A stretch of DNA of 64,000 nt from a virus (lineage: Duplodnaviria > Caudoviricetes), in IMG/VR virus record IMGVR_UViG_3300012344_000011, positions 1 through 64,000 of that record; one strand, written 5' to 3'. Positions 10,475-58,322 of the stretch are shown piece after piece. Numbering within the stretch: the first letter of the stretch is position 1; every line of letters starts with the position of its first letter. The position numbers were made by a program, and so were the translations under genes. The notes under the pieces are model-generated. The model did not search any database. It was not told the origin of the DNA and worked only from the letters and a program-made list of their open reading frames with translations.

Positions 10475-11065
10475 TTACTTAGTTACGTCTGTTACACCGA
10501 CTTTTACAACTTCAAAAGTAGCGTCTTTGAATACATCACACTTCTCTTGGGTAAAAGCCATGAAATTGCGGTCATCAACAGCCGTCTTGTCAGGACCAAG
10601 GTCATTGACATAGACATAGCTTTGCTCAATTCGATTGCCGTCTTTACCAATAGCATCAACTGTAATACTATAAGATTGAACCTTATTAGAAATATTCGTT
10701 ACTACAACTGGTAAATAGCCTTCTTGATGATAGTCCTTCTCTTCAATTACATAATCTTCAAATGTAACATTCACATCATTTTGAAGAACTTGTTCTGTTT
10801 GCTTGCCAGTAGTCCTATCTAACGATTCAGATGCGGCATCTAACACAGCGCCAACATAAGCTTGAACCGCAAGAGTAACAATAACGCTTGCCACACAAAG
10901 AACAATACCAGCAATAGCTGCTCCACGGTTACCGATACCCTTTTTGATTGCAACAATACCAAGAACAAAGCCAACAACCGCAAGAATAGGAACAATATTA
11001 TTCACAACTAAAATAAAAGAAAGCACACAACCAACAATACCTAAAACTAAACTAGCTACGCTCAT
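10475..11065 (-). CDS. Membrane protein (DUF4190-like TM region plus extracellular FxLYD-like domain)
   Basis: VASLVLGIVG...GAAIAGIVL TM pattern then beta-rich domain. Confidence 0.65.
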   Translation of the reverse strand: MSVASLVLGIVGCVLSFILVVNNIVPILAVVGFVLGIVAIKKGIGNRGAAIAGIVLCVASVIVTLAVQAYVGAVLDAASESLDRTTGKQTEQVLQNDVNVTFEDYVIEEKDYHQEGYLPVVVTNISNKVQSYSITVDAIGKDGNRIEQSYVYVNDLGPDKTAVDDRNFMAFTQEKCDVFKDATFEVVKVGVTDVTK

Positions 11066-11082
11066 ATAGTCCTCTTTCTACT

Positions 11083-11751
11083 TTACATAATTTCATATCT
11101 ATATCCTCTACCTTTGACGGTAGTAATTTTCTCTTTACCGATCTTTTGCCGCAAACGATTCATGTTTGTAGAAACAATTGCGGTGCTACCATCATCCCAG
11201 CCCCAAATAGATTCTAACAATTCTCTTGTGCTAATTTCTTCACCAGCCTTTGTCATTAAGACTTTTAGAAGTTTTAGTTCTGTTGGAGTCAAAGATAATA
11301 AATTGCCCGCATCATCAAAAGCTTGATTTTTTCTTCTGTCAAATAAAATTCCATTGATCTTAACAACTTTGCTTGGAACTTGCGTTTGATATTTCTTTAT
11401 AAGACAAACACATCTTATAACAAATTCTCTTAGACGTAAAGGAATTTTTAACATTTCGTCTGTACCAGCAGTTAGACCTCTAATAACATCAGCTTCTTCA
11501 TATTCTTTAGAGATCATGATAATCGGAGTGTTTACACGTTGCCGCAAATATTCTGTAAAAATATAACCATTATACCCTTCCAAGAGAGTGTCAATAACAA
11601 ACAGTGTATAGTCAGCATATTTATTATTGTTCTCACACTCTGCGGAAGAAGTATAAACATCGACTATCAAGCCTTCTTCTTCAAGAGCTTCTTTGATAGT
11701 CTTTTGATGAGCTTCGTCTATAGTCAATAAAGCGACTTTAATCACTTTCAT
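11083..11751 (-). CDS. OmpR/PhoB-family response regulator (orphan)
   Basis: Receiver (VID..L.G.NG, PIIMIS, GL.AG.D) plus winged helix (LTPTELKLL, RELLESIWG, RLRQKI, TVKGRGY). Confidence 0.9.
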   Translation of the reverse strand: MKVIKVALLTIDEAHQKTIKEALEEEGLIVDVYTSSAECENNNKYADYTLFVIDTLLEGYNGYIFTEYLRQRVNTPIIMISKEYEEADVIRGLTAGTDEMLKIPLRLREFVIRCVCLIKKYQTQVPSKVVKINGILFDRRKNQAFDDAGNLLSLTPTELKLLKVLMTKAGEEISTRELLESIWGWDDGSTAIVSTNMNRLRQKIGKEKITTVKGRGYRYEIM

Positions 11752-11944
11752 TTGACTCATCGTTATCATTAATATCAGGTTGCGGCGCAGCCAGTTCGGT
11801 TAGAAAACATCCCTGAAAAATGGCGATAGGACGTCCTAGTTTTTCAGCTTCATTATATGCTTCAACAAAGTCTGGTTTTACACCAATAATCTGCATGGAG
11901 GATCGATCAACAATATAATAATTATAAACCATATTACTTACCAT
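11738..11944 (-). CDS. Hypothetical protein
   Basis: ORF overlapping neighbours in operon. Confidence 0.6.
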   Translation of the reverse strand: MVSNMVYNYYIVDRSSMQIIGVKPDFVEAYNEAEKLGRPIAIFQGCFLTELAAPQPDINDNDESNESD

Positions 11945-12464
11945 ACCATTCTAGAATTTTATCTACACCAAGATCTGCTTCGTGTTCACTTAGTTGTTTA
12001 TAAAAAGCAGTCCAATCAACCTTTTTCTTTCCATCTAACCATATTTGAAGAATCGCTTCTGCAACGCGATCAGAGTGGTCACGTAATTCAGGCATGTCCA
12101 GTAGTTCTGCAGCCAAATAACTTACACCAGGATATTTCTTTGGCTCTTCAACTTTTTTCAATACATCTTGATATACTTTTTCCCAGGTGTCTTGAGGATT
12201 AAGCTTTGTCTTCTCTTTGTTTTTATTTACCTTGAACTTTTCTGTAACAATGAAATCCTTCTGAATATCATTAACAGCTTTTTGCATATAAATTTGCTTT
12301 ACGCAATCCATAAAATTAGATAGTAAATCTGCTCCGTGAGTGTAACCAGTACTCTCTTTACCATCTTTGAAAGCTGTCAACTGGACATCATATGTTGAGT
12401 CTTGCATTGGAACAATTGTGCAATTGATTTTATCAAATTCACTAAACAACATCTTTGTTCTCAC
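11934..12464 (-). CDS. Hypothetical protein
   Basis: 176-aa ORF in operon. Confidence 0.65.
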   Translation of the reverse strand: MRTKMLFSEFDKINCTIVPMQDSTYDVQLTAFKDGKESTGYTHGADLLSNFMDCVKQIYMQKAVNDIQKDFIVTEKFKVNKNKEKTKLNPQDTWEKVYQDVLKKVEEPKKYPGVSYLAAELLDMPELRDHSDRVAEAILQIWLDGKKKVDWTAFYKQLSEHEADLGVDKILEWYGK

Positions 12465-13338
12465 TTTCTTCTAATAATTTCATCAAATCTTCTTTTAGGG
12501 GTAAGCCAGTCTTAGCTTCTCTCTTATAAGCAATTCCATTCTGAAAATTATATTCAGAAAATTCATATAGTCTTTCGCATTTATGACAACTGGACATAGC
12601 TCTTGCGCGACAAGCTAAGCCGCAAGAAGAACGATAATCTGCTAGTTCGGGAGGAACACACGGTGACATAATCGGGAAAGAAACATCTCTATTAATGAAC
12701 TTTAGATCGCCTCTCCAGTACTGTTCTATAAACCAGCTTTTGTATTGTTGTTTATTGATTTCCCAGTCATAAGAAATATCTTCGTTTTTACAATCAAATT
12801 CTCCAACAGAGAAGAATTGCTTTAGAATCCACATGTCTTGCGGTCGATAGATAGGCGCTCTCTTATTTTTATAGACAAAAGGTGTTGAAGTTGGAATTCT
12901 ATTTAGAACAATTCGCAGTTCAACCTTATTCTTCTTGCAAATCGCATCTATATTAGGTAAATTATAATGAAGATCGTCATAAATATACAGACCTTCTGCA
13001 CCTTGTTTGATAGCCCAATCCAAGAGAAGATAAGAGTTGATACAAAACGAAGAATCAAAAATAAAGGGAATCTCATTTGCTCTTAGCTCAGGCAAATTAT
13101 ATAATTCCCATGTTCCAACTCTGACTCTCAAATTAGGATTGATAACTGAGGCGATCTTTAGCTTATCAATATTCATAATACTCTCGCCCGCAAATTTGAC
13201 ATTAATTTTCTTCTCTCTTGGAACATCTGCCAAGAAAGCATTGAGCCTATCATAGTCATCATGCTTCATCACGATATTGTATTCATCTGGATCAATATCG
13301 TCTTCATATTTGTTTTTATATGGACACGCGAACTGCAT
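12442..13338 (-). CDS. Hypothetical protein, weakly peptidase-U32/TIM-barrel-like with C-terminal Cys cluster
   Basis: IYRPQDM, R.SCGLAC...CHKC. Confidence 0.5.
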   Translation of the reverse strand: MQFACPYKNKYEDDIDPDEYNIVMKHDDYDRLNAFLADVPREKKINVKFAGESIMNIDKLKIASVINPNLRVRVGTWELYNLPELRANEIPFIFDSSFCINSYLLLDWAIKQGAEGLYIYDDLHYNLPNIDAICKKNKVELRIVLNRIPTSTPFVYKNKRAPIYRPQDMWILKQFFSVGEFDCKNEDISYDWEINKQQYKSWFIEQYWRGDLKFINRDVSFPIMSPCVPPELADYRSSCGLACRARAMSSCHKCERLYEFSEYNFQNGIAYKREAKTGLPLKEDLMKLLEESENKDVV

Positions 13339-14821
13339 ATTTATTTAGCACCTCTCTTGTAATGGGAATATTCTTTCTAACCAAATTTTCAGGAGACATA
13401 TATTTCTCGCTGTAAACAAAACACTCTTCTTCTTTATTGAAAAGGAAGAAGTTTGTCAAACAATTCAAACAAACTTTCTTTTCAATTGGACGAGAGTAAT
13501 ACTTGTTGCGAACAGAAATTTTATATAAAACTTGAGAATGATCAACGTGTTTACAACTAGTGCAGCCATATTTTTGATAGCAATCATAGCAGTACTTGAC
13601 AGAAGATTCAATTTCATCTTCATATCCTGGTTCTGTGCAAATACGCTTGCCACAAGACATACACGTTGCTTGGCCCGACAGATTCAAGTAAAGACTTTTC
13701 TTTACATAGTTGCGGCAACACCAGTAAGGGGTATCATGATCATAAATCATATCATTATACATGACATTCATATAACAGAAAATCTTATGATAGCGTTCTC
13801 TGCCCCATCTGTTCAGGTCATGTTTTACATAGCTATTCTCTCTAGAACGAATCAAGTCTTTATATAGCTGCATCTTATATTGATACTTCCAACTAATGTT
13901 CGCTCTAATAATTGGCTGAATGTTAGATAGAGCCAACTTAGCCAAATTGGCATTTTGATAAGGGTAATGTTTACCAACAAGAAGAATGTCTTTATGAATA
14001 AACATTAGTGTACGCCAATTCTTGTTTGGAATATAGTGTCCATTGAATGTAAATTTAGTTCTTGAGCTTTCAGTGTAAACAACAACTGCTACATTACTAT
14101 TCATCATTTCAATAGTACCAGTTGAATATCCACCATTTTTGCGCCAATTCATACAAGACCGCCAATGACATTCATTGTCACTCATTGTCATAAAATCAAT
14201 GGGATGAATACTAAAAGTCAAATTTGTCTTTACTTTTTTGCTCGTTAGAATAACACTAACTTCATCTCTCCAGTCGATAAACAAATCAAAACTAGAATAA
14301 CCATAATATTCAAGAACTTTTCTTACTGCTTTCATTATCTTAGTACCTTTTGGAATAGTAAGAGAAGGTCTTTTTTCATTATTTAGATTCGTGAAAGTAT
14401 AACTTTCATAAACTGAGCCTGAAGCGACTTGTTTTTTATACAAAAGATGCAAGAAATTTCTGCTATCTTCAAAGGAGATATTATCTTTGATATACTCTCC
14501 TCGAAGCCATCTTGTCACGCTGTCAATGAAAATGTTTCCATAGCTAGGAACAGATTCATTTAAGTAACTTAGGACGCAATGAATAGAAGGATCTTGATAG
14601 CTTTTATCAAGCTTTGCGGTGAGGGTTCTTTGTCCCACAGTATATTCAACTGGAACTGAAACTCTCAGTTGATTACCAAAAATTTTTAGGAGTCGTTTTT
14701 TATTTTTATTCCATTCAGCAAGAATAGCTTCTATAGACATTGGATTTGCTCCGCTATAGCTGCGAACATATTGACAAATCAAATCTTTATCTTCTTCTGT
14801 AAGCAAATCAAATGGTTTCAA
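13316..14821 (-). CDS. Conserved-looking phage hypothetical protein with C-terminal Zn-finger motifs
   Basis: SIHPIDFMTMSDN..WRSCM motif; several CxxC. Confidence 0.7.
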   Translation of the reverse strand: MKPFDLLTEEDKDLICQYVRSYSGANPMSIEAILAEWNKNKKRLLKIFGNQLRVSVPVEYTVGQRTLTAKLDKSYQDPSIHCVLSYLNESVPSYGNIFIDSVTRWLRGEYIKDNISFEDSRNFLHLLYKKQVASGSVYESYTFTNLNNEKRPSLTIPKGTKIMKAVRKVLEYYGYSSFDLFIDWRDEVSVILTSKKVKTNLTFSIHPIDFMTMSDNECHWRSCMNWRKNGGYSTGTIEMMNSNVAVVVYTESSRTKFTFNGHYIPNKNWRTLMFIHKDILLVGKHYPYQNANLAKLALSNIQPIIRANISWKYQYKMQLYKDLIRSRENSYVKHDLNRWGRERYHKIFCYMNVMYNDMIYDHDTPYWCCRNYVKKSLYLNLSGQATCMSCGKRICTEPGYEDEIESSVKYCYDCYQKYGCTSCKHVDHSQVLYKISVRNKYYSRPIEKKVCLNCLTNFFLFNKEEECFVYSEKYMSPENLVRKNIPITREVLNKYAVRVSI

Positions 14822-14830
14822 GATAATCTC

Positions 14831-15052
14831 CTAATAAATATCAATTTCGTCTAATGTATCTTTCAAATAGTTGGGTAAACTTGAATAATCAATATAATTG
14901 TCTCTCAAGAAACGATCAACTTCATATCGAGGAATAGAATCATATTTATGACTATCTACAAAATTATTGATAACTGAAGCGTGATCATTTTCTTTCCAAC
15001 TTAGATAGCTAAAAACATCGTCAATCATTTCGTTTTCCTTTGATAAAATCAT
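14831..15052 (-). CDS. Hypothetical protein
   Basis: 73-aa ORF. Confidence 0.55.
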   Translation of the reverse strand: MILSKENEMIDDVFSYLSWKENDHASVINNFVDSHKYDSIPRYEVDRFLRDNYIDYSSLPNYLKDTLDEIDIY

Positions 15053-15354
15053 TATATCATATTTTTTTCACTATTGTCAATCAATTGTTTTGGCACAAAG
15101 CCATCACCATTTTTTTTTACTATCTTACTTTTATATACTTTATCTAATACTTGCATTACTTGTTCATAATATTTATCTCTTTTACAAAAATCTCATACTT
15201 CATTTATAAAATGATAATATTGTATATATAAATCTTCTGAGACTTCTCTAACACACCCTTGTTTTTTTGATGAAAGGATAAATTCTCCAATGCGGCATTG
15301 TATATTATCGCATTTAGAACATTCAAGGGTTATCTTATAAGAATTATTACTCAT
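15052..15354 (-). CDS. Hypothetical protein (100 aa) with in-frame TGA (15193-15195)
   Basis: MSNNSYKITLECSKC...NEV(TGA)DFCKR...; fills the gap exactly, TAATG overlap with next gene. Confidence 0.55.
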
Positions 15355-15584
15355 GCTTTTCTAATCTCCAACAGTACACAATCACCATGATCATTACGCC
15401 GCAAGTTTTCATTTGCTCGATCAATAACTGCTTGAGCTTCTTCCTTTGTATTATAACAAAAAGCATTAGTCAGTCGTGTTACTTGACTACCATACTTATT
15501 CAATGCTCTAAAATTCTTTTGCGGAGTATGCTTAACACCTGAAAAACTATACTCTTTGATGACTTTACCATAGATTCTATACAT
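15351..15584 (-). CDS. Hypothetical protein
   Basis: RBS, promoter TTGACA-18-TATAAT at 15640-15611; ends at TGA (7 more codons if read through). Confidence 0.65.
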   Translation of the reverse strand: MYRIYGKVIKEYSFSGVKHTPQKNFRALNKYGSQVTRLTNAFCYNTKEEAQAVIDRANENLRRNDHGDCVLLEIRKA

Positions 15585-15650
15585 TCTTATCCTTTCTCTT
15601 GGACAATTATATTATATCATAAAGTTTATGCTTCTGTCAAATAAAATATA

Positions 15651-15720
15651 AGGTTATAATTATGCTTAAGCATAATTATAACCTAAGCTAAAATAATATG
15701 CTTAAGCATATTATTTTAGC
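15651..15720. repeat. Two adjacent perfect 34-bp palindromes sharing core TATGCTTAAGCATA
   Basis: aggttataattatgcttaagcataattataacct (15651-15684) and gctaaaataatatgcttaagcatattattttagc (15687-15720). Confidence 0.95.
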
Positions 15721-15877
15721 AAGTCTCTATTTATAGTATAATTTTATTATTACTCTTTTATATACTAATTTATATTTTCAAAAATAAAAACCTCATAATA
15801 AATATATATTGGAGTGTATTATATCACAATCTGAAAATTTTGTCAAATTGAATTATTTCTCTACTGAAAAAATTTCT

Positions 15878-15907
15878 TTGACAATAATAATAAAGAAAGT
15901 GTATAAT
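15878..15907 (+). promoter_or_regulatory. sigma70/sigmaA-type promoter starting the plus-strand block
   Basis: TTGACA-18-TATAAT. Confidence 0.75.
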
Positions 15908-15938
15908 ATAATCAAATGAAAATGATGAAAGGATTTTT

Positions 15939-16139
15939 ATGGCAAACAAGTTTAGGGTATCTCAAAAGGGCAAAGTGTATGGTCACTATGCCGCGCATTC
16001 TTTTGATGAAGCAGTTCAAAAAGCAATTGAGCATTATAAGCCCTATGGTGGTGTTATTGAAGGTGAACCCTTTGAAGTAGAATGCGGTAATCTAAAGACA
16101 AAAATGTGTATTATTAAGGAGAATGTAAATGCGTTATAA
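15939..16139 (+). CDS. Hypothetical protein
   Basis: RBS GAAAGGA, ORF. Confidence 0.65.
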   Translation: MANKFRVSQKGKVYGHYAAHSFDEAVQKAIEHYKPYGGVIEGEPFEVECGNLKTKMCIIKENVNAL

Positions 16140-16668
16140 GGTAATTGATTCTACATGTGAATATCGACAGAGTGATGGTCGTCCTGTATATACTGTTACT
16201 ATTGCTTGCAAATATGGAACTTTTACTTCTACTTGTTGTGCTTGTGATGAAGATTTAGTTTATGGTAATGATGATTGTCCTATCAATCTTGAGCTGTCAA
16301 GTTACTATATTGCAGAATATAAGTGTGTTACGAAAGCACTGCAACGAAAAGCAAGGTATCTAGAGCAACGAGTTATTGGCATCAAAATGGCATATGATGC
16401 TTTAGCAGAATCATTCTCTATGCATCAACAGAATGATGATTATGTTCATTATGGTAAAACTAAATTTGACAATTTATTTGAACGCTCTTGCTATGCAGAT
16501 GGTTATGACACTGCTTTGTGTGATTTGTTGCGGCAATATGAATCAGCTTATAAGAACTATGATGATGCGCAAGACGAGTATATTCGTCATAAAGATGGAT
16601 TATATACTTTCGTGAATAAGATTCGCCTCAGAAATAAATTATTCTTAGAATATCTAAATAAAGAATAA
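16129..16668 (+). CDS. Hypothetical protein
   Basis: RBS AAGGAG, ORF. Confidence 0.65.
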   Translation: MRYKVIDSTCEYRQSDGRPVYTVTIACKYGTFTSTCCACDEDLVYGNDDCPINLELSSYYIAEYKCVTKALQRKARYLEQRVIGIKMAYDALAESFSMHQQNDDYVHYGKTKFDNLFERSCYADGYDTALCDLLRQYESAYKNYDDAQDEYIRHKDGLYTFVNKIRLRNKLFLEYLNKE

Positions 16669-16750
16669 ATGAAGTCACTGTTCCTTTATTATGAGAATCC
16701 GATAAGTTTTTTGCTTGTCGGATTCCTTTTTTATGTTATAATTATTTATA

Positions 16751-18676
16751 ATGAAGAAAGGAGAGTATGTAGTGGACAAAAATTTATACACAGATGATAG
16801 TATTCAGTCTCTTACTCCATTAGAGCATGTGCGATTACGTCCTGGTGTTTATGCTGGTGATACAAGTGATGCAACTCAATTGGCGACAGAGATTCTTGGT
16901 AATGCTGTCGATGAATATAATATTGGACATGGTAATAAGATTGTTATTGACATTAGAGATAATGGTGTTGTTACTATCCAAGACTATGGACAAGGTTTTC
17001 CTATCAATGTCATTAGAGAAGATGGGGAGACGGTTCTTCAAGCCTCTTTTGATGTAATGAACACTTCTGGTAAGTATACAGATGATGGTGTATATCAAGG
17101 TGTATCAATTGGTACTAATGGTATGGGCGGAAAACTTACTAACTTCCTTAGCAATTGGTTAGAAGTATTTTCTTGTAACGCGACCGGTAAGTATGAACAT
17201 ATTTTGTTTGAAGAAGGTGTCTTTTCTAAGCGTGAAACAGGCATTACTTCTGCTATGCCATCTGGCACAAAAGTAAGTTTCAAGCCAAGTAAAGACTTTT
17301 TTGATAATCCAAAAGTAAACGAAAGTAAGCTTCGCAATTTCTGTGAAGATATTACTTGTCTATGTCCTAATTTGGAAATTGTTTTTAATGGTGTTTCAAT
17401 CAAACATGAAAATGGTATTGAAGATTTACTTTCAAAGCATGTGGGAAAAAACGTTGAGATTGTTGATAATCCTTTTCTTTTACATAAAGTAGAGAATAAA
17501 CAAATAATTGATCTTGCAATGACCTATGTTTCTAAAGCAACATCTTCCATTATATCTTATGTCAATTGCGGCTTGACGCAAGCTGGACCACATTTGGTAA
17601 GTCTAAAAAGTGGACTAACTCGCACTTTGAATAAATGGGCAAAAGAGCAAGGTATCTTGAAAGAGAAAGATAAAAATCTTGACGGTAGCTCTTTACAAGA
17701 AGGACTTATTCTTGTTTGTAATATTACTGCTGAAAATGTAGCATATGATGCACAAGTAAAAAGTACTGTTACAAAAATTGATACAGCTTTTATCAATTCA
17801 AATTTCACTTCTGCTCTAGAAGTTTGGCTTGACAACAATCCAATAGATGCAAAGAATATTATTGAGAAGGCGCTCATTGCTAGAAAAGCTTCTGAAGCTG
17901 CAAAGAAAGCTAGAGAACGTGTAAAAGCTAGTGCAGATACAAAGAAAACAAATAAAATTCAAATTATGCCGTCTAAGCTTGCGGACTGTAGCAGTAAAAA
18001 GCGAGAAGAATGTGAACTATATGTTACAGAAGGTGACTCTGCATCTGGTGGTGCTAAAACAATTCGTAATGCTATGACTCAAGCTGTTATGGGTCTGCGC
18101 GGCAAGTGCTTGAATTGCTTGACCGCAAAACCAGAGTCTATCTTGAAGAATGCAGAAGTTGTAGATATTCTAAAAGCACTTGGTGTTGGATATGAGATTA
18201 CACCTGATGGAAAGAGTCTAAAAGTTTCTTATGATAAAAAGAAGCTTCGATATGGCAAATTTATTATCGCAGCTGATCGCGATAGTGACGGTAGTCACAT
18301 TCAGTCTTTGGTTTTGACAATGTTATGGACACTTGTTCCAGACTTGATCATTGATGGCTATGTATACATTGCACAACCTCCTCTGTATAAGGCTGAATGG
18401 GGAACAAATTACAAATACCTGTCTGATAAGAAAGAATTGGAAGTTTTTAAGAAAGAACATTCTGGCAACTTTACTCTAACGTATTTTAAAGGTCTTGGTG
18501 AAGCGAGTCCTGAAGAATTAGGGTGGATGATCATGGATCCTGCTACACGCCAAATTAGAAAAGTAGAAGTTGCAGACATTGGAATGGCTGAAACGACTTT
18601 TCAAAATTTAATGGGAGCAGACTCTAGTCCTAAAAAAGAGTTTGTCTTTGGAAATGAAATAAAAGAAATTATGTAA
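16751..18676 (+). CDS. Type IIA topoisomerase subunit B (GyrB/ParE-like)
   Basis: LEHVRLRPG, GNAVDE, DYGQG, TEGDSASG, GLRGK.LN, DRDSDGSHI, PPLY, FKGLGE. Confidence 0.95.
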   Translation: MKKGEYVVDKNLYTDDSIQSLTPLEHVRLRPGVYAGDTSDATQLATEILGNAVDEYNIGHGNKIVIDIRDNGVVTIQDYGQGFPINVIREDGETVLQASFDVMNTSGKYTDDGVYQGVSIGTNGMGGKLTNFLSNWLEVFSCNATGKYEHILFEEGVFSKRETGITSAMPSGTKVSFKPSKDFFDNPKVNESKLRNFCEDITCLCPNLEIVFNGVSIKHENGIEDLLSKHVGKNVEIVDNPFLLHKVENKQIIDLAMTYVSKATSSIISYVNCGLTQAGPHLVSLKSGLTRTLNKWAKEQGILKEKDKNLDGSSLQEGLILVCNITAENVAYDAQVKSTVTKIDTAFINSNFTSALEVWLDNNPIDAKNIIEKALIARKASEAAKKARERVKASADTKKTNKIQIMPSKLADCSSKKREECELYVTEGDSASGGAKTIRNAMTQAVMGLRGKCLNCLTAKPESILKNAEVVDILKALGVGYEITPDGKSLKVSYDKKKLRYGKFIIAADRDSDGSHIQSLVLTMLWTLVPDLIIDGYVYIAQPPLYKAEWGTNYKYLSDKKELEVFKKEHSGNFTLTYFKGLGEASPEELGWMIMDPATRQIRKVEVADIGMAETTFQNLMGADSSPKKEFVFGNEIKEIM

Positions 18677-18684
18677 GGAGTAGT

Positions 18685-48808: not shown

Positions 48809-48811
48809 AAA

Positions 48812-49285: not shown

Positions 49286-49364
49286 TTTTGTTTGACAGAG
49301 AAAAAAATATATTATATAATATAAATATAAAGAAAATGATAATGTTACTAGAAGGGAATAGCTT

Positions 49365-49778: not shown

Positions 49779-49779
49779 A

Positions 49780-50019
49780 ATGATTGTTTTGTGTGTATTA
49801 GCAGATCCAGTGCGGCAAACAGAGTTCAAAATTTTTGATGAAGGCACATTGATTTTTAAAGATAAGTGCTGGGCAAGAGACGTTGAACAAGTTGCTCAAA
49901 AAATTTATCTAAAATATGTAGTTGATAATGTTGTAGTCACTGGTGCGACTATTTTTTCTCGGAAAATTGAAAATACTCTCAAAGATATTTTTGGAACAAC
50001 TAAGGTAAGGCGAGCATAA
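49780..50019 (+). CDS. Hypothetical protein
   Basis: ORF with GAGG RBS. Confidence 0.55.
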   Translation: MIVLCVLADPVRQTEFKIFDEGTLIFKDKCWARDVEQVAQKIYLKYVVDNVVVTGATIFSRKIENTLKDIFGTTKVRRA

Positions 50020-50021
50020 GA

Positions 50022-50312
50022 ATGATTAAAGTTTTGATCAAATCTGTAAATGAAATCAGGGTAGAGACAAAAGCAGACTGCGATGAGCTGCGAAAAGAAG
50101 TATATGCTGCGGCAAATTCAAACCAGTATAAAGTGACTGGTTGGACAGAAACTCCTAAAAACCGCAAGGAAAAGGGAGAAATTGTTGAAGAGTGGTATGT
50201 ATGTAAATATACTTTAACCTTCAATGATCAAAAAGACCCTGAGACTTATCTTAGTTCAATTGAATATAAGATGATTGGACAGGACAATGTAGAGGAGGCT
50301 TTGCCTTGGTAG
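50022..50312 (+). CDS. Hypothetical protein
   Basis: 96-aa ORF in operon. Confidence 0.6.
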   Translation: MIKVLIKSVNEIRVETKADCDELRKEVYAAANSNQYKVTGWTETPKNRKEKGEIVEEWYVCKYTLTFNDQKDPETYLSSIEYKMIGQDNVEEALPW

Positions 50313-50740
50313 AAGATTTAGATATTTTTATTCATTATTTGCCTGGTTCTCCTGCTTTAGAAGTGACCGATTATGGCGACTGGGTAGATTTATATTGCTA
50401 TGAAGATATTGATTTACGCAAAGGTGAATCTTGTTATATTTCGCAAGGTATCTCAATGGCTCTTCCAGAAGGATATGAAGCAATTATGGCATCACGTAGT
50501 TCTACTTTTAAGAGATATGGTATTCTTCAACAAAATGGAATCGGTGTGATTGACAATATGTATCGCGGGACTGATGATATTTGGATGTTCCCTGCGTATG
50601 CTACAAGAGATATTCATATCAATAAAGGAACGCGAATTTGCCAGTTTCGTGTTCAGAAAAAGCAGCCTAAACTAAATTTTATTTCTATGCAGTCTCTTGG
50701 AGAAACTAACAGAAATGGTTTCGGAAGCAGTGGTGTCTAA
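50306..50740 (+). CDS. dut: Trimeric dUTPase
   Basis: GDWVDL, SRSS, GVIDN.YRG, RICQF, R.GFGSSG. Confidence 0.9.
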   Translation: MVEDLDIFIHYLPGSPALEVTDYGDWVDLYCYEDIDLRKGESCYISQGISMALPEGYEAIMASRSSTFKRYGILQQNGIGVIDNMYRGTDDIWMFPAYATRDIHINKGTRICQFRVQKKQPKLNFISMQSLGETNRNGFGSSGV

Positions 50741-51219
50741 TGATTTTGCTTAGTTTAGATCAGGCATTAAATACTACAGGCTGAGCTATTTTTGATAATA
50801 ACAAACTAATTGAAAATGATTCTTTCAATATAAAAGCAACTGCTCCAATAGAAGTAAGACTTGGTAGTTTTTGAAAGACGCTAAATTCTTTATATGAAAA
50901 ATATAATTTTGATTATTTAGTCTTTGAAGATATTCAGAATCAGAATAATAATGAAACATATAAAAAGTTAGCTTACTGCCAAGCAACAATATATCTTTGG
51001 TGTTATTTTAAAGAAATAAAATGTTCTATTATGGCACCCAGTCATTGGCGATCAATTTTAGATTATAGTTTTGGTCGCAAAAGAGAAGAACAAAAAAAAG
51101 CCGCAATGAATCTTGTGAAAGAAAAATGCGGCTTGAGCGTTTCTTCAGATGAAGCAGATGCTATTTGTATAGGTCTTGCTTATTTGCAAGAAACATCTAA
51201 AAATAAAAGTGCTTTCTAA
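50740..51219 (+). CDS. RuvC-like Holliday junction resolvase (TGA at 50782, 50872)
   Basis: MILLSLDQALNTTG(TGA)AIFD, VFED, PSHWR, K, DEADAICIG. Confidence 0.85.
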
Positions 51220-51417
51220 CAATAAAATATAGGAAGGAGGAATTGATGGAGTGCTTTAGTTTATCTGCTCTAAAACAGATTGAGCAAATTCTCTTTTCAT
51301 ATGAATCCTCTTATGATCCAAAGATTCCTCCTTTTTGTATTAAGTATGGAAAAGATTATTACTTTTATGAAATAAAAGAAATATTTGGTAAGTATAGAGT
51401 TATTACTAGATAAAAAT

Positions 51418-51514
51418 GTACCGCTCGCCTATTGGTATGGCCCTGGTCTTCAAAACCAAGAGTTGGTGGGGTCCAAACTCACCAAGCAGAGTTCGATTCT
51501 TTGGCGGTACGCCA
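51418..51514 (+). tRNA. UCA-anticodon (opal-decoding) tRNA, 97 nt, long variable arm
   Basis: gtaccgc/gcggtac acceptor, G73-CCA, tggt-ctTCAaa-acca, extra arm ttggtggg/ctcaccaa, cagag-ttcgatt-ctttg. Confidence 0.9.
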
Positions 51515-51570
51515 AGCTAATATTTGGATAATAACGTAGGTTTGATGCTTTTTTTAGAAAGAATAGAAGA

Positions 51571-52524
51571 ATGAACATAAAAGATAGATTATTACTAACT
51601 TCGATTTTTGAAGATAATGAATGGTTAGATAAATATTGTGAATTAGTTGATAAGAAAGAAAAAAAGAGAAAAAATTTAGATGAAAGAATACAAATACACC
51701 ATATTCTTCCACGATATTATTATAAACAACTTGGTATTCCTATAGACAATTCTTTAGAAAATACCGTTGAGTTATCATTCAATCAACATATATTGGCGCA
51801 TTATTTTTTATATAATTGTTCTTTAGGAGGTATGAAGCAAGCAAATTTAGGTGCTTTTGCTCTTCTAACAGGTGGCAAGCGAATCAAAAATTTTGATGCA
51901 ATAGACCTGAAAGAACAAAAAGAAACTTATCAAAAATGGGTTGATAGTCTATCTAAAAGTGTAATTTGCTTAGAGACTAAAGAATTTTATTCAAGTGCAA
52001 AAGAAGCTTGTAGAAGAACAGGCATTGATTATTCTTCTATTTCAAAATGTTGTAAAGGAAGAAAACTTACCGCTGGTGGTTATCATTGGAAATTTTTTGA
52101 AGACTATAATAATAATATCGAAATAGAATATATAGGTGGATATAAAAAACGTAAAAAAACAAAAAGACAAGAACCAGCACTACCAATCAAAGTAATAAAT
52201 TTAGACACTAATAGAGTATATGATAATGTTCGCCAAGCTGGGAGAGAAACTAACACTAATGAGTCTTGCATAAGAGATGTTCTAAAGGGGAAATGTTGTA
52301 CTGCTGGTGGATACAGATGGCAAAGATATGAAGATTATCTTGCAGGAAAAACTGTTGATACATCACGTAAAAAAACCAAGCCAGTAAAAAATGTAGAAAC
52401 GAATGCCGCTTATCCTTCTATTGCAGAAGCGTCTAGACAAACGAAAATTGACAAAAGTCAAATAGCAAGATGCTGTAGAGGAGAAAGCAAAACAGCTGGT
52501 GATTATCATTGGGAATATGCTTAG
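51571..52524 (+). CDS. Free-standing HNH homing endonuclease with three NUMOD1-like repeats
   Basis: HHILP...N.VEL...H..AH; repeats S..EA.R.TGI..S.IS.CC.G...TAGGY.W. Confidence 0.85.
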   Translation: MNIKDRLLLTSIFEDNEWLDKYCELVDKKEKKRKNLDERIQIHHILPRYYYKQLGIPIDNSLENTVELSFNQHILAHYFLYNCSLGGMKQANLGAFALLTGGKRIKNFDAIDLKEQKETYQKWVDSLSKSVICLETKEFYSSAKEACRRTGIDYSSISKCCKGRKLTAGGYHWKFFEDYNNNIEIEYIGGYKKRKKTKRQEPALPIKVINLDTNRVYDNVRQAGRETNTNESCIRDVLKGKCCTAGGYRWQRYEDYLAGKTVDTSRKKTKPVKNVETNAAYPSIAEASRQTKIDKSQIARCCRGESKTAGDYHWEYA

Positions 52525-52528
52525 ACAT

Positions 52529-52572
52529 AAAAAAATGGGGGAGTACACTTCAAAAGTGTACTCCCTTTTTTT
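52529..52572. terminator. Bidirectional intrinsic terminator between convergent blocks
   Basis: gggagtacactt-ca-aaagtgtactccc hairpin flanked by A and T runs. Confidence 0.85.
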
Positions 52573-52577
52573 ATATT

Positions 52578-54218
52578 TTACTCAGTAATTTCACCCTCAT
52601 AAACTTTGATGAATTGAGCGGTAGCAGCTGCCGGTGCAACACTAACTGCTTCTGTGATAGTAATATCTTTTGAAATAGCAGTAATGTAACCTTCAGTCGC
52701 AGTGCATTTTGCTTTCGCTACAACAGAACCATCTGCTGTTGTTGCATTAGCATCAATCTTGATGAACTTACCAGTCGTTGCCTGTGCTTCTGTATATACG
52801 GCTGGTGTAACAAAGTTTTCACCTTTAGCGAAAGAAGTTGTTACTGTTGTTGAAGGAGCTGTAACAGCAGAAGGTTGCTTAGCAATGGTATGATCAGCAT
52901 CTTTGATCTTTACATAGTAAGAACCAGAAGCCTCAGAACCACCAGTAACAGTAGCAGCAGTACCAGTTGTACCTTCTAATGCATAACCAGTCTTACCAAT
53001 AGAAGGAGTTACAGTAGCAGTACTCTCAATCGCAGCAGCACTAACAACTACATAGTGACCATCAGCAGGTGCTTCTGTAGTAATAGCATCAGATAAAGCA
53101 GTGCTTGTATCTTCTTTCGCGATAACAGGCTTAACAGTAATGTTAGCTTTGTCCGCTGTGGCCTTAGCAGTAGCAGCGTCAACCTTCGCGGCAACAGTTG
53201 CAGTACCAGAGATAGCACCTGTACCAGTTAGTTCCTTCTTTGCATAACCAACTGTCTCAACACCAACATTGGCAGTACCAGAGATTGCGCCAGTACCAGC
53301 AACCACAAATTTACCATCTTCACCAAGAGTAAACGTTACAGCATCAACAGTAGCAGCAGCATCGTTAGCAACGATAGTACTAAGAGTTGCATCATCCATA
53401 GTACCAGCAACTAGCTTACCATCTTTGTCATAAACAGAAACGGTTTTGTAAATTAGATTACTATTACCACTTTCACCAGCAACAACAGTAGCTTCATCAG
53501 GAACTAAGTCTGCTAATGGAATGTAAGTATTCTTAATATAACCTTCATTGATATATAAACCACTACCAGAGATAAGAACAGGAGCATTCTTTTCTGTATA
53601 ATTCTTCTGTGCTTCCTCTGTTACCTTGTTGAGTAATGTTGCTTCAGCGATTGGATAGAAAGCATCGCCACTAATATTTACTGTCGCAGTGTTCTTTGGA
53701 TCAACCCAACCAGCAGTAGCTACACTGGCACTACCTGCGGCGCTAGCCTTAACATAGAAGCCAGCAGTTGGCGCAGCATCTACCTTCTCGCCAAGAACTA
53801 CTCCATGACCTTCTGCAGAAGCAGTACCGCTACTTGCTAGAGCACCTTCCTTGACGTAAATCTTCTTTGATGCTTGCTCTGCATCTGCCTTTGCAACTGT
53901 AACAACGTCAGTCTCAGCCGCAAAACCAGCTTTACCAGCCTTAATACCAACTTTTACTTCTGGCGCAGTTGCATCGGCTGTAATTGTAATAGGATATTTT
54001 GTTACAGTCTCACTAGCAAAGTCATTCTCTGCCATTGCGACTGTTGCGATTACTGAGTTAGCAGACTTGACTTCATACTCTGCTTTTGGAGTAGTAATAT
54101 CAAGTTTAATGTTTTTGTCAACGTAAGTACCCGCTGTGTTTAAGGTTTTAGTTACTGTGCCGGCCTTGGTAATATCAACAGGTAGCACAAATTGATTCTC
54201 TACAACCTCAAGTGACAT
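52578..54218 (-). CDS. Ala/Thr-rich virion fibre/decoration-like protein, paralogue family
   Basis: TAGTYVDKNI, APVLISGSGLYINEGY, YDKDGKLVAGTMD; C-terminal KVYEG. Confidence 0.7.
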   Translation of the reverse strand: MSLEVVENQFVLPVDITKAGTVTKTLNTAGTYVDKNIKLDITTPKAEYEVKSANSVIATVAMAENDFASETVTKYPITITADATAPEVKVGIKAGKAGFAAETDVVTVAKADAEQASKKIYVKEGALASSGTASAEGHGVVLGEKVDAAPTAGFYVKASAAGSASVATAGWVDPKNTATVNISGDAFYPIAEATLLNKVTEEAQKNYTEKNAPVLISGSGLYINEGYIKNTYIPLADLVPDEATVVAGESGNSNLIYKTVSVYDKDGKLVAGTMDDATLSTIVANDAAATVDAVTFTLGEDGKFVVAGTGAISGTANVGVETVGYAKKELTGTGAISGTATVAAKVDAATAKATADKANITVKPVIAKEDTSTALSDAITTEAPADGHYVVVSAAAIESTATVTPSIGKTGYALEGTTGTAATVTGGSEASGSYYVKIKDADHTIAKQPSAVTAPSTTVTTSFAKGENFVTPAVYTEAQATTGKFIKIDANATTADGSVVAKAKCTATEGYITAISKDITITEAVSVAPAAATAQFIKVYEGEITE

Positions 54219-54248
54219 ATAGTCCTCCTTTATTTTTGCTTTGTTCTT

Positions 54249-54476
54249 TTATTCTCCATTATACACTTTGACGGTCACATCTTGTGAGCCGTCAAAGACA
54301 TAAGGACCAAGAGTTAGTTTTCCAGAATAAAAAGTTTTTCTTTGTAACTCATTATTCTCGTCATAATAATCAAGATGAATTTTTCCATCGTCCATAGTAA
54401 AAGAAAGTAGTCCATCTTGTTTTGGTGTATTTTTTAGTTTAGAGGAAGTTCCTCTTTTAAAAAAGACCTCTGCCAT
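54249..54476 (-). CDS. Small virion-associated protein
   Basis: FKRGT...DG...F..D.GKIHLD motif; C-terminal VKVYNGE. Confidence 0.6.
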   Translation of the reverse strand: MAEVFFKRGTSSKLKNTPKQDGLLSFTMDDGKIHLDYYDENNELQRKTFYSGKLTLGPYVFDGSQDVTVKVYNGE

Positions 54477-54490
54477 ACTACTCCTTTCTT

Positions 54491-54748
54491 TTACCCTAAT
54501 CTGCCCCATTCTAATTTAGCCGTTTGACCAGAAGTAGATGCGGCATATAAACGATATTTTCCAGTTTTTTCATCTATAGAATTAGATTTATTATAAACAT
54601 ATAACTGTCCATCATCAAGACAAATTGTAAAATAAACTTGCGGCATTAGCGTATCTTTTGTAGCAATCATTTGCTCTTTTGTTAAGACTAATCGCGCATC
54701 AATAGGGTCTTTACTAGTAATCTTAAAACCCTGCGGTAAAGTAATCAT
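54491..54748 (-). CDS. Small virion-associated protein
   Basis: GFKI....PIDAR motif. Confidence 0.55.
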   Translation of the reverse strand: MITLPQGFKITSKDPIDARLVLTKEQMIATKDTLMPQVYFTICLDDGQLYVYNKSNSIDEKTGKYRLYAASTSGQTAKLEWGRLG

Positions 54749-54750
54749 TA

Positions 54751-55596
54751 TTATGCCTCCTCAAATTTATAAGTATATCTTTGTGGAGTTTCAAATGTAC
54801 TTGGAGTATCATCATAATAATAATAATAATCTGCATCTTCATTATAAGCAAAACCAATGCCAAATCCATTTACTATAATTGTATAACACGTAACGCCAAA
54901 AGCTTTTGGTAAAGCTAAAACAACGTACTCGTCATTAGTGAGAATATTTTTATATACATAACCCGCATCACTAAGCAAAGTCTGCTTTGTTACACCTGAA
55001 ACAGGTTTTAGACCAGCTAAACTTGTTGGCTTTACTTTTGATACACCTACATAGAGAGGTTTAGTTTCATCAACAGATACATTGAGTATTTTCTTTATAA
55101 TATCTGCTACAGAAGTATCAGCAGGAAATGTTGTTCCAGCTGGTACGCCACCAACTGCTGCGCCGCTAACAATTTGTTCTCCAATAGTAGTGTCAATATC
55201 ACCCAAGGAAATATCAGCTACGCCATTTTGTAAAATAGATTTTCCATTTACTTTTACATCACTAACTGCATTTTCTGTCAAAAAATTAGAGTCGTTTACA
55301 AGTTCAGATGTTTTTTTAGGCACATCAACTTGCTTGGCGATCTCAGAATAATCTTTTGACGTAATTACATAATCATTGCCTTGCGGACCGCGTAGTTCTT
55401 CTTTTTCATCTTGCGTCAAATCGTTGAATGTTAATGCATCGCCTTTAGGACCTTTTAGCGCGGCAAGCTGCTCAGGAGTAAAGTCATCATAAGTAAAGGC
55501 TTTACCAGGATCGCCTTTTTCTCCCTTTAATGCTCCTGCGCCTTTAAGAGATTCATTAACATATTTTTTTGCCAAGGCATAAGTTGCAATATCCAT
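54751..55596 (-). CDS. Collagen-like-repeat structural protein
   Basis: KGEKGDPG, FTYDDFTPEQLAALKGPKGD, KTSELVNDSNF, DVKVNGKSI. Confidence 0.75.
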   Translation of the reverse strand: MDIATYALAKKYVNESLKGAGALKGEKGDPGKAFTYDDFTPEQLAALKGPKGDALTFNDLTQDEKEELRGPQGNDYVITSKDYSEIAKQVDVPKKTSELVNDSNFLTENAVSDVKVNGKSILQNGVADISLGDIDTTIGEQIVSGAAVGGVPAGTTFPADTSVADIIKKILNVSVDETKPLYVGVSKVKPTSLAGLKPVSGVTKQTLLSDAGYVYKNILTNDEYVVLALPKAFGVTCYTIIVNGFGIGFAYNEDADYYYYYDDTPSTFETPQRYTYKFEEA

Positions 55597-55599
55597 ATG

Positions 55600-55776
55600 T
55601 TAGACCTCTTTTCATTCACCTTGGCTGTTCATCATATAGACAGAACCAGTACTGATGCAGATTGCTATTGATCCCATAGTGGCAGTTTGAGGAAGATTTT
55701 TGAAATCTTCCTCACTATCAAAAGCAAACTCTGCAACATCATAGTTTCTGTCGTATTGAGTTTGTTTAATTGCCAT
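55600..55776 (-). CDS. Small hypothetical structural protein (TGA at 55612-55614)
   Basis: MAIKQ...GSIAICISTGSVYMMNSQGE(TGA)KEV. Confidence 0.6.
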
Positions 55777-55779
55777 TGA

Positions 55780-56748
55780 TTACCTCCAAATTCTAATTGC
55801 ATCAATTGGCTCTCCATTGCCAGCATAATCATCACTTGATCCGCCTGTATCATAAGAACCAATCATTTCAGGTAACCATTCACCAGTAGTTCTAGTATGT
55901 ACTTGATAATGAACGTCAGAGTCGGGAATCCAAAGTTTTGTAATTGGACTATCGCCTACACCAGCTGCTCCATTTACAAAATCATCAGGATTATACTCGT
56001 AAACCCAATCAGGCTCTTCCCCTGATTCAACACCAACTCTATATTGACTTACATTACCAATAGAAATGTAGTAAATATCATTACCATAGATACCAGCGTA
56101 ATCATCATCAGTTGCGGTGCAGCTAGTACCAATTACTTTGTCTCGCCATTCTGTATCGTAGGTTTTATAATATGGTTGTGAAACCTCTTCTTCTTCCTCG
56201 TCGCTATCATCAGAGCCATCTGACTCTTCTGTTGGACCAATATAATGAAGGATTCCATCCCAGGGATAGTCATAATACCAGTGAATATAAGACTCATAGC
56301 TAGTTTGATCACCTGTTTGACCATAGATAGTTCCGTTCTCAGAAATGCAGAACTCACCAAGAATATCATTGCTAGGAGAACCATCAAGACACATTGCAGT
56401 ATGATTTACTTCGTTGAGGTAAACGTCTCCTCTAGAAGCACTAAAACTCATATCGTGCCATTCAAATAATCCTGAATCAACAAAGACAGAACGCATATTG
56501 CCTGTGTAAGTAGCTCCATCTAACAAGCCTTCGTACGAACTACCTTTTAATGCTTCTTGCCAACAATCAATTACAGCAGAAGAGCAATCTCTATCACCAA
56601 TATAGAACTCACTTGTATGCCCTTCACATTCGACATAAATAGAACCTAGTGAAGCGTCTCCCCATCTACTACCCTGCGAATAGCCAAACCTTTCATCGTT
56701 ACAAAGAGCTTCCATATTTGTAGCAGCAATATTTGCATAATTTGCCAT
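55780..56748 (-). CDS. Endolysin (NlpC/P60-CHAP-like Cys peptidase + C-terminal wall-binding region)
   Basis: GYSQ..RW, DCSS, YTGNM, GDVYLN...HTAM, YPWDGILHY; YQVH...GEWLP; next to holin. Confidence 0.85.
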   Translation of the reverse strand: MANYANIAATNMEALCNDERFGYSQGSRWGDASLGSIYVECEGHTSEFYIGDRDCSSAVIDCWQEALKGSSYEGLLDGATYTGNMRSVFVDSGLFEWHDMSFSASRGDVYLNEVNHTAMCLDGSPSNDILGEFCISENGTIYGQTGDQTSYESYIHWYYDYPWDGILHYIGPTEESDGSDDSDEEEEEVSQPYYKTYDTEWRDKVIGTSCTATDDDYAGIYGNDIYYISIGNVSQYRVGVESGEEPDWVYEYNPDDFVNGAAGVGDSPITKLWIPDSDVHYQVHTRTTGEWLPEMIGSYDTGGSSDDYAGNGEPIDAIRIWR

Positions 56749-56760
56749 TTTCTTTGCCTC

Positions 56761-57003
56761 CTATTTTTCTTGTGGTTTTTTATTTCTCGCTTTTGGATTG
56801 ATAGTTTGTTTTTCTTTTTCGTCATCTTTCTCTTCAAGATAATTATCTAAAGCAGTAGCTACAGAATCAATAGAGTTACCACTACCTTTATTAGCCACTG
56901 CATTAGCAACAGCAGTAATTAACTTTACGCCATCAATAGATTTATCGTGGCTGTTTTGATAATTCCATTTTGCGGCAGGGCTTATAGGGCAATCTTTGAT
57001 CAT
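56761..57003 (-). CDS. Hypothetical protein
   Basis: ORF in lysis cluster. Confidence 0.5.
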   Translation of the reverse strand: MIKDCPISPAAKWNYQNSHDKSIDGVKLITAVANAVANKGSGNSIDSVATALDNYLEEKDDEKEKQTINPKARNKKPQEK

Positions 57004-57009
57004 TAAGCA

Positions 57010-57297
57010 TCATAGCAAAATTATTACAAAGATTGTTCCTACAACATATCCAATAGCAACAAGATCTTTGAAGAAGGCGGAGAGTCCTGCTGGTGTAGAT
57101 ACGTCTGGGTTAAAGGCTATTGTTGCTGTAGATAACATAAAGATACAACCAAAAATTAAAAGAAAAGTTCCTATTAGAGCCATAGAAATTCTAAATTTAG
57201 CTTTTGGGTGTAAGTTAGAAGGTTTAAAATCTGACAGTTTTATTTTTCCACGCATAGCATCGTGCGTATGTTTCGCTTCTTCTGTCATTACATTCAC
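57010..57297 (-). CDS. Two-TM membrane protein
   Basis: Hydrophobic segments; lysis cluster. Confidence 0.55.
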   Translation of the reverse strand: MNVMTEEAKHTHDAMRGKIKLSDFKPSNLHPKAKFRISMALIGTFLLIFGCIFMLSTATIAFNPDVSTPAGLSAFFKDLVAIGYVVGTIFVIILL

Positions 57298-57300
57298 CTT

Positions 57301-57600
57301 CTATTCTGATTGAGAATTACTAGATGGTAATAATTTTTCTACTGTTTCCTTTGAAGTGGTGCTTGCGGTGATTGTTGTTGCAGTAGAATTAGTATTGCTA
57401 CCTTCTCTTGCGGCATCTACATAAGCTTCGGCCGCAGCATAAATTGCAGTAGAAAGTGCGGTACAAATGATACCCGCTACCATTACTGTCTCATTACCAG
57501 TTGCAAAACCAGCGCAAGTTCCTCCAATAGAAGCTAGAAAAGCGGCGATTGCCATCCAGAATTTACGACTACCAAATTTTTGTAAAAAATTAGTGTTCAT
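57301..57600 (-). CDS. Holin
   Basis: FLQKFGSRKFWMA, two TMs, Y..AE..VDAAR. Confidence 0.8.
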   Translation of the reverse strand: MNTNFLQKFGSRKFWMAIAAFLASIGGTCAGFATGNETVMVAGIICTALSTAIYAAAEAYVDAAREGSNTNSTATTITASTTSKETVEKLLPSSNSQSE

Positions 57601-57628
57601 AAGTTTCTTCTCCTTTCTAAACAAAAAG

Positions 57629-57659
57629 AAAGACCGCACTCGGTGTAAAGTGCGGTCTT
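57629..57659 (-). terminator. Hairpin/attenuator upstream of holin
   Basis: aagaccgcact/agtgcggtctt followed by T-rich tract on minus strand. Confidence 0.6.
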
Positions 57660-57670
57660 AGCCTGACCTC

Positions 57671-57946
57671 TTATAAATTAAGACGGTCGATTCTATCATT
57701 AGCACGTTTGGCTTCGTTCTCCGCAGAAATTGCAATTGTTCTAACGTCTTGAAGATCTCTATTAAATGCTCTAACATCAACCTTTAAATCTTTAATGTCA
57801 TTAGAAATAAAGTCAAGACTTGTTTTTATCTCTGACGTTTCGCCTTTTTTTTCTTCTACATCAGACCGCATATTTCTGATCCAACCAGAGACACCAACAA
57901 GACAACCAATGATAGCAATTATAATAGAAATTGTTGCAATATCCAC
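57671..57946 (-). CDS. TM + coiled-coil (XhlA/holin-accessory-like) protein
   Basis: N-terminal TM, C-terminal AKRANDRIDRL. Confidence 0.6.
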   Translation of the reverse strand: MDIATISIIIAIIGCLVGVSGWIRNMRSDVEEKKGETSEIKTSLDFISNDIKDLKVDVRAFNRDLQDVRTIAISAENEAKRANDRIDRLNL

Positions 57947-58009
57947 GTTCTTTCCTTTCTATGGTTATGCTATCTATTCTATTATTATATATTTTTTTGA
58001 AGGCGATAA

Positions 58010-58321
58010 TTATTCTAATTTGTCCATTTCTTTTGGGCAGTTTTCGCCGCATCTAATCAAATCTAATCTATCGTGTGCGGCATCTGCTTTTGCTTTGGTT
58101 TTTAGAGTTATTTCAAAACCTTCTTTGATATTTCCACGTATATCTTCTATTTGGCATTTCATGTCTTCAACATCAATAATCAAATGATTAATTCTTGCTT
58201 CTAGTGTTTGTAATTTATATGAAAGATTGCTTGCATTATTTTTTCTACTTTGTTTTAGACCAAAAAGACCAGCCACACAACCGATTAAGGCAACTGCTAT
58301 ATATATTATATCAAAATTCAT
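58010..58321 (-). CDS. Paralogue of 57671-57946
   Basis: TM then ADAAHDRLDL. Confidence 0.6.
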   Translation of the reverse strand: MNFDIIYIAVALIGCVAGLFGLKQSRKNNASNLSYKLQTLEARINHLIIDVEDMKCQIEDIRGNIKEGFEITLKTKAKADAAHDRLDLIRCGENCPKEMDKLE

Positions 58322-58322
58322 A

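Follow-up and report, generated by a model that had tools for sequence, protein, structure and literature searches.

HIP1, a word of cyanobacterial genomes, is a frame-independent excess built from rare codons, and recently acquired genes are without it. Chi sequences are AGCGG in Bacillus subtilis, GAAGCGG in Staphylococcus aureus and GCTGGTGG in Escherichia coli. Where and how often replisomes prime is a long-standing question, to which the usual answer is three-base sites together with timing. DnaG primases recognize pyrimidine-pyrimidine-N and start opposite the middle base, pyrimidines on the 5' side favour priming, and a single zinc-domain residue can switch the specificity (PMC2532735, PMC5204125). 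The known sites are CTG for E. coli, CTA/TTA for S. aureus and Geobacillus, and CCC for Aquifex and Clostridioides difficile; among phage primases they are GTT (T4), GTC (T7) and GCA (SP6) (PMC2532735, PMC5204125). Here we analysed the first 64,000 nt (the window) of the virus record IMGVR_UViG_3300012344_000011, whose whole sequence (G000; 139,824 bp, 96% complete) served for the genome-wide counts. It carries two dispersed words, the pentamer TGCGG/CCGCA and the heptamer CCAANAG/CTNTTGG, which are selected genome-wide on both strands, are directionally coupled, and appear to vary among relatives together with the primase. We found no description of either word, or of the coupled pair, in open-access papers and preprints.

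The signal appears to work most like a primase initiation signal. As with DnaG sites, the phage has a DnaG-type primase, the heptamer template reads 5'-CT-N with a pyrimidine-rich 5' flank, and the heptamer lies about 1 kb apart per strand and may vary with one zinc-domain residue. Unlike DnaG sites, the words have seven and five bases, occur as a polar pair over long distances, are in strong excess and have little strand polarity. An ordered pair of longer words under selection inside coding sequence provides exact templates, and single-residue variants, for testing.

The pentamer in the phage and its relatives

The pentamer is found throughout the window:

86..63923, both strands: TGCGG/CCGCA, 167 dispersed copies, 96 as TGCGG and 71 as CCGCA on the plus strand

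A first-pass annotation of the window had placed its over-representation between 10567 and 58080. The copy numbers given there are exact (10 in 10567-11785 at the positions listed, 9 in 18685-20976 and 10 in 57300-58100) and the enrichment stands, but its limitation to that span does not, as the signal spans the whole genome. The record contains 200 CCGCA and 212 TGCGG, and these 412 copies, against 120 expected from an order-2 Markov model, rank the word first among 5-mers. It was again at the top after within-gene shuffling of synonymous codons (315 versus 105, z about 25; 339 versus 104 with code-4 genes), so that the excess neither disappears under a codon shuffle nor is equalled by other GC-rich pentamers. 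AGCGG, CGCGG, TGCGA, TGCGT and TGCGC show no excess in G000, which excludes a general effect on GC-rich words; the flat counts of the last three also argue against compensation for an avoided site.

As had been claimed, the word is raised in both orientations and all frames and uses rare codons. By frame, TGCGG was observed 40/37/99 times (24/5/46 expected) and CCGCA 48/71/38 times (14/16/6 expected), and the pentamer accounts for 48 of 96 CCG and 37 of 59 CGG codons. Outside coding DNA its density is 2.6 per kb versus 0.54 expected. The preferred context is TTGCGG(C/G), and consecutive sites in G000 show neither orientation preference, periodicity nor dyad pairing. The excess is strong in replication genes (77 versus 27 expected) and in virion genes (119 versus 35). 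All gene classes contain the word except open reading frames (ORFs) resembling homing endonuclease genes (HEGs) and DNA methyltransferase (MTase) genes; the scarcity suspected in the former amounts to a background level, with 2 copies in 12 HEG-like ORFs (8.7 kb) versus 2.4-3.9 for background.

Four other origins were rejected. A codon or amino-acid artefact is out, given the shuffle, the excess in all six frame and strand classes and the non-coding excess. Compensation for an avoided restriction site in G000 is out, with TGCGA, TGCGT and TGCGC flat and the non-coding excess present. Repair towards C:G is out because the favoured first base is T, and a tie to TGA recoding is out, as relatives with genetic codes 11, 4 and 15 all carry the pentamer.

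We compared G000 with L057, a relative at 92% nucleotide identity. Silent third positions within the pentamer differ in 14 of 74 cases, versus 26.9 expected from the same bases elsewhere, and 68 of 90 copies are kept, versus 54% for other pentamers with four G/C. This conservation of silent sites and copies indicates that purifying selection maintains the pentamer.

The word is a property of the family. CCGCA takes first rank in 18 of 19 viral loci linked to gyrB (second in the remaining one), in all 7 loci binned in metagenome-assembled genomes (MAGs), in 25 of 28 capsid-linked loci (GC 31-52%) and in 4 of 5 additional near-complete genomes, and its rank depends on neither genetic code nor GC. 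The dialects are overall TGCGS and KGCGG. After codon shuffling, clade A shows CCGCA alone (1.8-3.4x), clade B CCGCA plus GCGCA, and in G157 and clade C CCGCC equals or exceeds CCGCA. In the SPbeta-type phages phi3T and C30-3 and those of staphylococci and C. difficile the pentamer is not enriched, and a 5'-YYGCN-3' word seemingly shared by all SPbeta-type phages vanished under codon shuffling.

In samples of about 30 Bacillota or gut chromosomes, TGCGG never ranked high on either strand; a listing of TTGCGG as all on the plus strand in four chromosomes was not upheld on counting the DNA. MAGs containing these phage contigs show no enrichment, bar one contig (L055, contig 4 of G005) with 72 copies in 20 kb and a winged-helix paralogue, which is probably another phage of the same family binned with a bacterium. 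Two other phages treat related words differently: Staphylococcus phage PG-2021_4 (L155) avoids CCGC (1 versus 18 in 50 kb), the opposite of the present family, and Enterocloster phage PMBT24 (L078) lacks GCWGC (0 versus 40) and has GCSGC raised (60 versus 17), its GCGGC excess being compensation for the avoided GCWGC.

Silent-site conservation, presence across the family and absence from host-type chromosomes support two proposals of the first-pass annotation, a DNA-level signal and a binding site for a phage factor; its idea of a decoy for host defence received no support. A further proposal was a HIP1-like word tied to a phage methyltransferase. Like HIP1, the pentamer is a frame-independent excess from rare codons that is missing from recently acquired genes, and the genome has three amino-MTase genes, two of them in the window:

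35598..36839, plus strand: amino-MTase genes 35598-36125 and 36138-36839, the latter with two TGA=Trp codons; non-core, 0 pentamer copies

Unlike HIP1, it is non-palindromic, private to the phage family and without a conserved cognate methyltransferase. A search of 14 pentamer-carrying relatives did not find the MTase at 35598-36125. Of 11 relatives, 3 have N6_N4 MTases; of 5, one has a C5 MTase, a type missing from G000. No conserved MTase is among the core genes, and L057, a close relative, has kept the pentamer with no second MTase at that locus. With a favoured T that cannot come from repair towards C:G in addition, a methylation-linked word is hardly credible. Overall, the excess is genuine, extends across the family, is under selection and is not tied to methylation, and the pentamer makes up one half of the coupled pair.

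TGCGG might alternatively mimic the Chi of the host AddAB enzyme and protect or recombine phage DNA ends. It is one base off the B. subtilis Chi, and like Chi it is short, non-palindromic, dispersed in genes on both strands and contains GCGG. Chi-rich phages are known, namely P1 and lambdoid phages without their own recombination genes (10.1101/2021.07.08.451572; PMC12315714), and one sampled Bacillota chromosome has GGCGG in excess on its G-rich strand (75 versus 36). The phage word differs from Chi, however, in beginning with T (or G), in being absent from the sampled Bacillota chromosomes, where TGCGG was high in none, and in being coupled to a second word. AGCGG itself is at background in the phage (99 versus 110 expected). 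The phage also has recombination genes of its own, namely RecJ, RuvC and a Sak4-like annealase, and Chi is mostly missing from phages that carry recombination modules (PMC12315714). Nor would Chi predict coupling to a word held in common with an Enterococcus phage, and we regard Chi mimicry as very improbable. The GGCGG-rich 36%-GC chromosome (G108; L059, L060, L259-L262) may itself carry a Chi variant.

A partner heptamer and its polar coupling to the pentamer

The earlier annotation overlooked both the partner word CCAANAG and the polar coupling of the two words. In the window the partner is distributed as follows:

96..63012, both strands: CCAANAG/CTNTTGG, 105 dispersed copies, 59 on the plus and 46 on the minus strand; 44 of the 105 have a same-strand TGCGG 15-205 nt downstream

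The N position prefers G, then T, then A or C, and the preceding base is T; in G000 CCAAGAG occurs 71 times versus 13 and CCAATAG 59 times versus 21. The heptamer is enriched 3-6x in clades A and B and relaxed to NCAAKAG in G157 and clade C, and 24 of 30 copies are retained between G000 and L057. It is also over-represented in the cultured Enterococcus phage VRE9_4 (20 versus 5), from a different host, where it has the same purine-rich flank, and is not over-represented in phi3T and PMBT24. The flank, at +7..+16 on the 3' side, is 54-68% purine versus about 50% in controls. Heptamers occur once per 1.1 kb per strand (0.8-1.4 kb in five genomes), avoid each other on the same strand within 300 nt (observed/expected (O/E) 0.67-0.87) and are spaced slightly more evenly than at random (coefficient of variation 0.86-0.96, five genomes).

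We placed CCAANAG at 0 and compared the same-strand window +16..+206 with its mirror upstream. TGCGG is depleted at +7..+15, roughly doubles in frequency from +16 and then declines over some hundreds of bases (O/E 1.8, 1.6 and 1.3 in successive 100-nt bins, with a return to 1 by about 900 nt); on the upstream side its frequency does not exceed background. In a scan of all 5-mers for a downstream over upstream excess, TGCGG came out on top (819 versus 422, five genomes). Heptamers with TGCGG downstream versus upstream numbered 70 versus 36 of 163 in G000 (p 9e-5), 114 versus 54 in G161, 74 versus 42 in G162, 135 versus 70 in G159 and 54 versus 32 in G160, the coupling being significant in each of these five genomes alone. 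It was repeated in separate sets of loci from clade A (55 versus 19) and clade B (185 versus 89). In G000 it is seen at sense (43 versus 21), antisense (44 versus 34) and non-coding anchors (23 versus 7). Single-mismatch heptamers gave no coupling (39 versus 40; 38 versus 55), nor did chromosomes (71 versus 75) or other phages. In the dialect clades the clade's own word sits downstream of the heptamer (GGCGG, 51 versus 22); in G157, with the strict heptamer, coupling was not significant (17 versus 13). TGCGG density is 2.4 per kb within heptamer windows versus 1.2 outside.

Three pairs serve as examples:

40825..40864, plus strand: CCAAGAG at 40825 and TGCGG at 40860, within DNA polymerase III alpha
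49682..49715, plus strand: CCAAGAG at 49682 and TGCGG at 49711
25616..25650, minus strand: CCGCA at 25616 and CTCTTGG at 25644 as seen on the plus strand, within thyX

The 18 pairs that we listed all differ in sequence, so the pairs are not a repeat family. CCGCA in the opposite orientation also shows bumps at +30..+45 and +105..+120 from CCAANAG in pooled clade A (47 versus 24 expected; 10 versus 3.6 in G000), which may reflect non-independence.

Candidate readers of the two words

Some phage-encoded polar reader of the word pair is very probable. The replication genes lie together in the window and are, judged by sequence similarity, an SPbeta-type module:

25948..28471, plus strand: YorF-like, Sak4-like AAA_24 and YorH-like genes
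28475..32445, plus strand: DnaB-like helicase, split by HEG-like ORFs into three pieces, 28475-29185, 30265-30702 and 32131-32445
32446..33519, plus strand: DnaG-type primase, SPbeta YorJ-like (phrog_47, E 3e-34), candidate reader
33797..35587, plus strand: RecJ-like single-stranded-DNA exonuclease, one in-frame TGA
36924..42760, plus strand: DNA polymerase III alpha, split by HEG-like ORFs into 36924-38267, 39043-39540 and 40778-42760

Gyrase, ligase and RuvC are also encoded. The primase is found in all six genomes and is common to all carriers of the words; it matches Aquifex primase (PDB 2au3) at E 9e-5, and in its zinc finger His63 falls between the final two cysteines, C60 and C64.

We give about an even chance to the reading that the phage replication machinery, most likely the DnaG-type primase together with the DnaB-like helicase, recognizes a polar signal of two words, of which TGCGG/CCGCA is one half. 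Template CT-N-TTGG fits pyrimidine-pyrimidine-N and its complement is purine-rich for 10 nt; CCGCA, too, may be readable in this way, as CC-G-CA. The template strand would present, in order, 5'-CCGCA, a gap of 15 to about 500 nt, a pyrimidine-rich stretch and CT-N-TTGG-3'. The heptamer would be the priming site, its 5'-CTN-3' resembling the CTG of E. coli and the CTA of Firmicutes, and the primer would be purine-rich, about 12 nt long and start with pppAG. CCGCA would be met first by a 5'-to-3' helicase and, more conjecturally, might arm or pause the primosome; it might equally conjecturally be a second site, gripped by another primase on the same helicase. It is also possible that CCGCA acts after priming, in hand-over or as a limit of primer displacement, which fits the geometry equally. 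Equal use of both strands would imply that replication crosses every region both ways, as it does in the recombination-dependent mode. In its most specific form, which we offer only tentatively, the proposal is a DnaG-type primosome that needs two ordered template words, CCGCA for arming and CTNTTGG for priming 15-500 nt on; the words would stand on both strands, giving fragment starts about every kb, and would have evolved jointly with the primase in gut-anaerobe phages and Enterococcus phages alike.

Covariation of the words with candidate proteins is suggestive, not decisive. In the 29 phages whose primase has H or G at the position of residue 63, median heptamer enrichment is 2.6x; in the 9 with D, E or Q there, it is 1.2x (Mann-Whitney p 2e-5, without correction for kinship and with few independent contrasts). 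Two sister contrasts agree with this link (L163 versus G157; L181 versus L186/L187), and loss of the first C of the heptamer goes along with an acidic zinc-finger residue. On the primase and DnaB-N trees the CCGCC-dialect phages are a single clade, and the Sak4-like tree splits them into two. Columns separating the dialects perfectly number 4 in the primase, 2 in DnaB-N, 1 in RecJ and 0 in the winged-helix protein described below; as the CCGCC positives are one clade of the primase tree, the null for such columns is too lenient, and only the tree result was used.

Several observations weigh against a primase as the reader. Residue 63 has exceptions in L232 (Gly, 1.3x) and G160 (Asp, 2.1x), and a primase clade (L199, L203, L205, L214, L215, L218, L171) has lost the zinc ligands and kept the heptamer. 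The YorF and RecJ trees fit the CCGCC dialect as well as the primase tree does, that dialect clade is essentially one event, and the whole-protein partial Mantel test gave r=0.00 for the primase. Known DnaG sites have three bases, here five and seven. Simple theta replication would predict polarity of the words with GC skew, and none was clear: the O/E of CCGCA is slightly higher on the G-rich strand in six of six genomes, with equal excess counts, and the heptamer is near even. Phages phi3T and C30-3 and those of staphylococci and C. difficile have homologous primases and show neither word. Outside heptamer windows TGCGG still reaches 1.2 per kb per strand, well above the value of about 0.5 in shuffled sequence, so that part of the excess is not accounted for by coupling. 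In VRE9_4 the counterpart of the pentamer is weak (GGCG 30 versus 9 downstream, CCGCC 8 versus 7 by codon shuffle). Finally, the coupling was found post hoc, in genomes that are related. As to the clade without zinc ligands (TIDH ... SYTGG), most members have the heptamer at 2.3-3.1x.

The pair could instead belong to a different polar phage enzyme: a factor for nicking, recombination or packaging would start at the heptamer, and a helicase or nuclease (RecJ-like, Sak4-like or gyrase) would act at TGCGG downstream. Such an enzyme would suit a coupling that is polar and host-independent, the RecJ and YorF trees account for the CCGCC dialect in no more steps than the primase tree, and equal strand use needs no added assumption. 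It would leave the primer-length purine flank, the 1-kb spacing and the link to the primase zinc finger unexplained, and no conserved site-specific nuclease was identified among the core genes; we consider it rather unlikely.

Another candidate for TGCGG is a small protein encoded upstream of the replication module:

22421..22929, plus strand: core gene for a stand-alone winged-helix protein of 84 amino acids (22616-22870), with a terminator of its own and sigma-A-type promoters, two in tandem

This protein, if abundant, might coat the genome at TGCGG and, past priming or nick sites at the heptamer, form a polar stop for strand displacement, or a shield. The gene is present in every family locus that reaches its position and is monocistronic, with near-consensus promoters. 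Its product has a confident MarR-type fold (predicted local distance difference test score, pLDDT, 90) and matches about 70 residues of MarR proteins of 124-147 amino acids. In partial Mantel tests against the CCGCC dialect, the winged helix alone gave a signal (r 0.21, p 0.014, one of 15 uncorrected tests). None of its columns separates the dialects perfectly, as four primase columns do, L201 combines a clade-A-like winged helix with the CCGCC dialect, and the sites lack the dyad pairing or periodicity mentioned above. Coating by this protein seems unlikely, and would in any case be compatible with the heptamer as a primase site. A paralogue lies at genome positions 119919-120428, and relatives have a second winged-helix type, with two domains within one frame in L175/L178. 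If the reader is not a primase, the polar pair still indicates an undescribed phage DNA transaction.

The phage, its genetic code and other features

TGA encodes Trp in this phage: reading through it merges tail genes into frames as long as 3001 codons, and it occupies Trp positions of an MTase. Across the record there are 67 TGA versus 387 TGG codons, with TGA mostly in virion genes and HEG-like ORFs, and a fitting tRNA lies in the window:

51418..51514, plus strand: tRNA with anticodon TCA, fits TGA=Trp recoding; no component of the two-word signal

Elsewhere in the genome, at 127862-128656 and 125708-127177 (L004), are the third amino-MTase-like gene and a conserved RNA-binding (Ro60-like) gene, respectively. 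The nearest matches of NrdD are gut contigs and Enterocloster phages (65-71%), a similarity that hints at Clostridia as host. G000 strongly avoids TTAA, CATG, GGCC, CCGG, GATATC, GAATTC, GAAGAC and GGATG, a hint of host restriction systems; in G161, GATC and GCGC are almost wholly missing.

Compared by size, codes and habitat only, the phage resembles the Agate clade (Borges et al., 10.1101/2021.08.26.457843): about 140 kb, from gut, with a TGA suppressor tRNA and TGA mainly in virion genes. As in that clade (10.1101/2021.08.26.457843), relatives mix codes 11, 4 and 15, and the pentamer is independent of the code. The two words could mark members of the family when these gut phages are binned, and their absence could reveal genes acquired recently.

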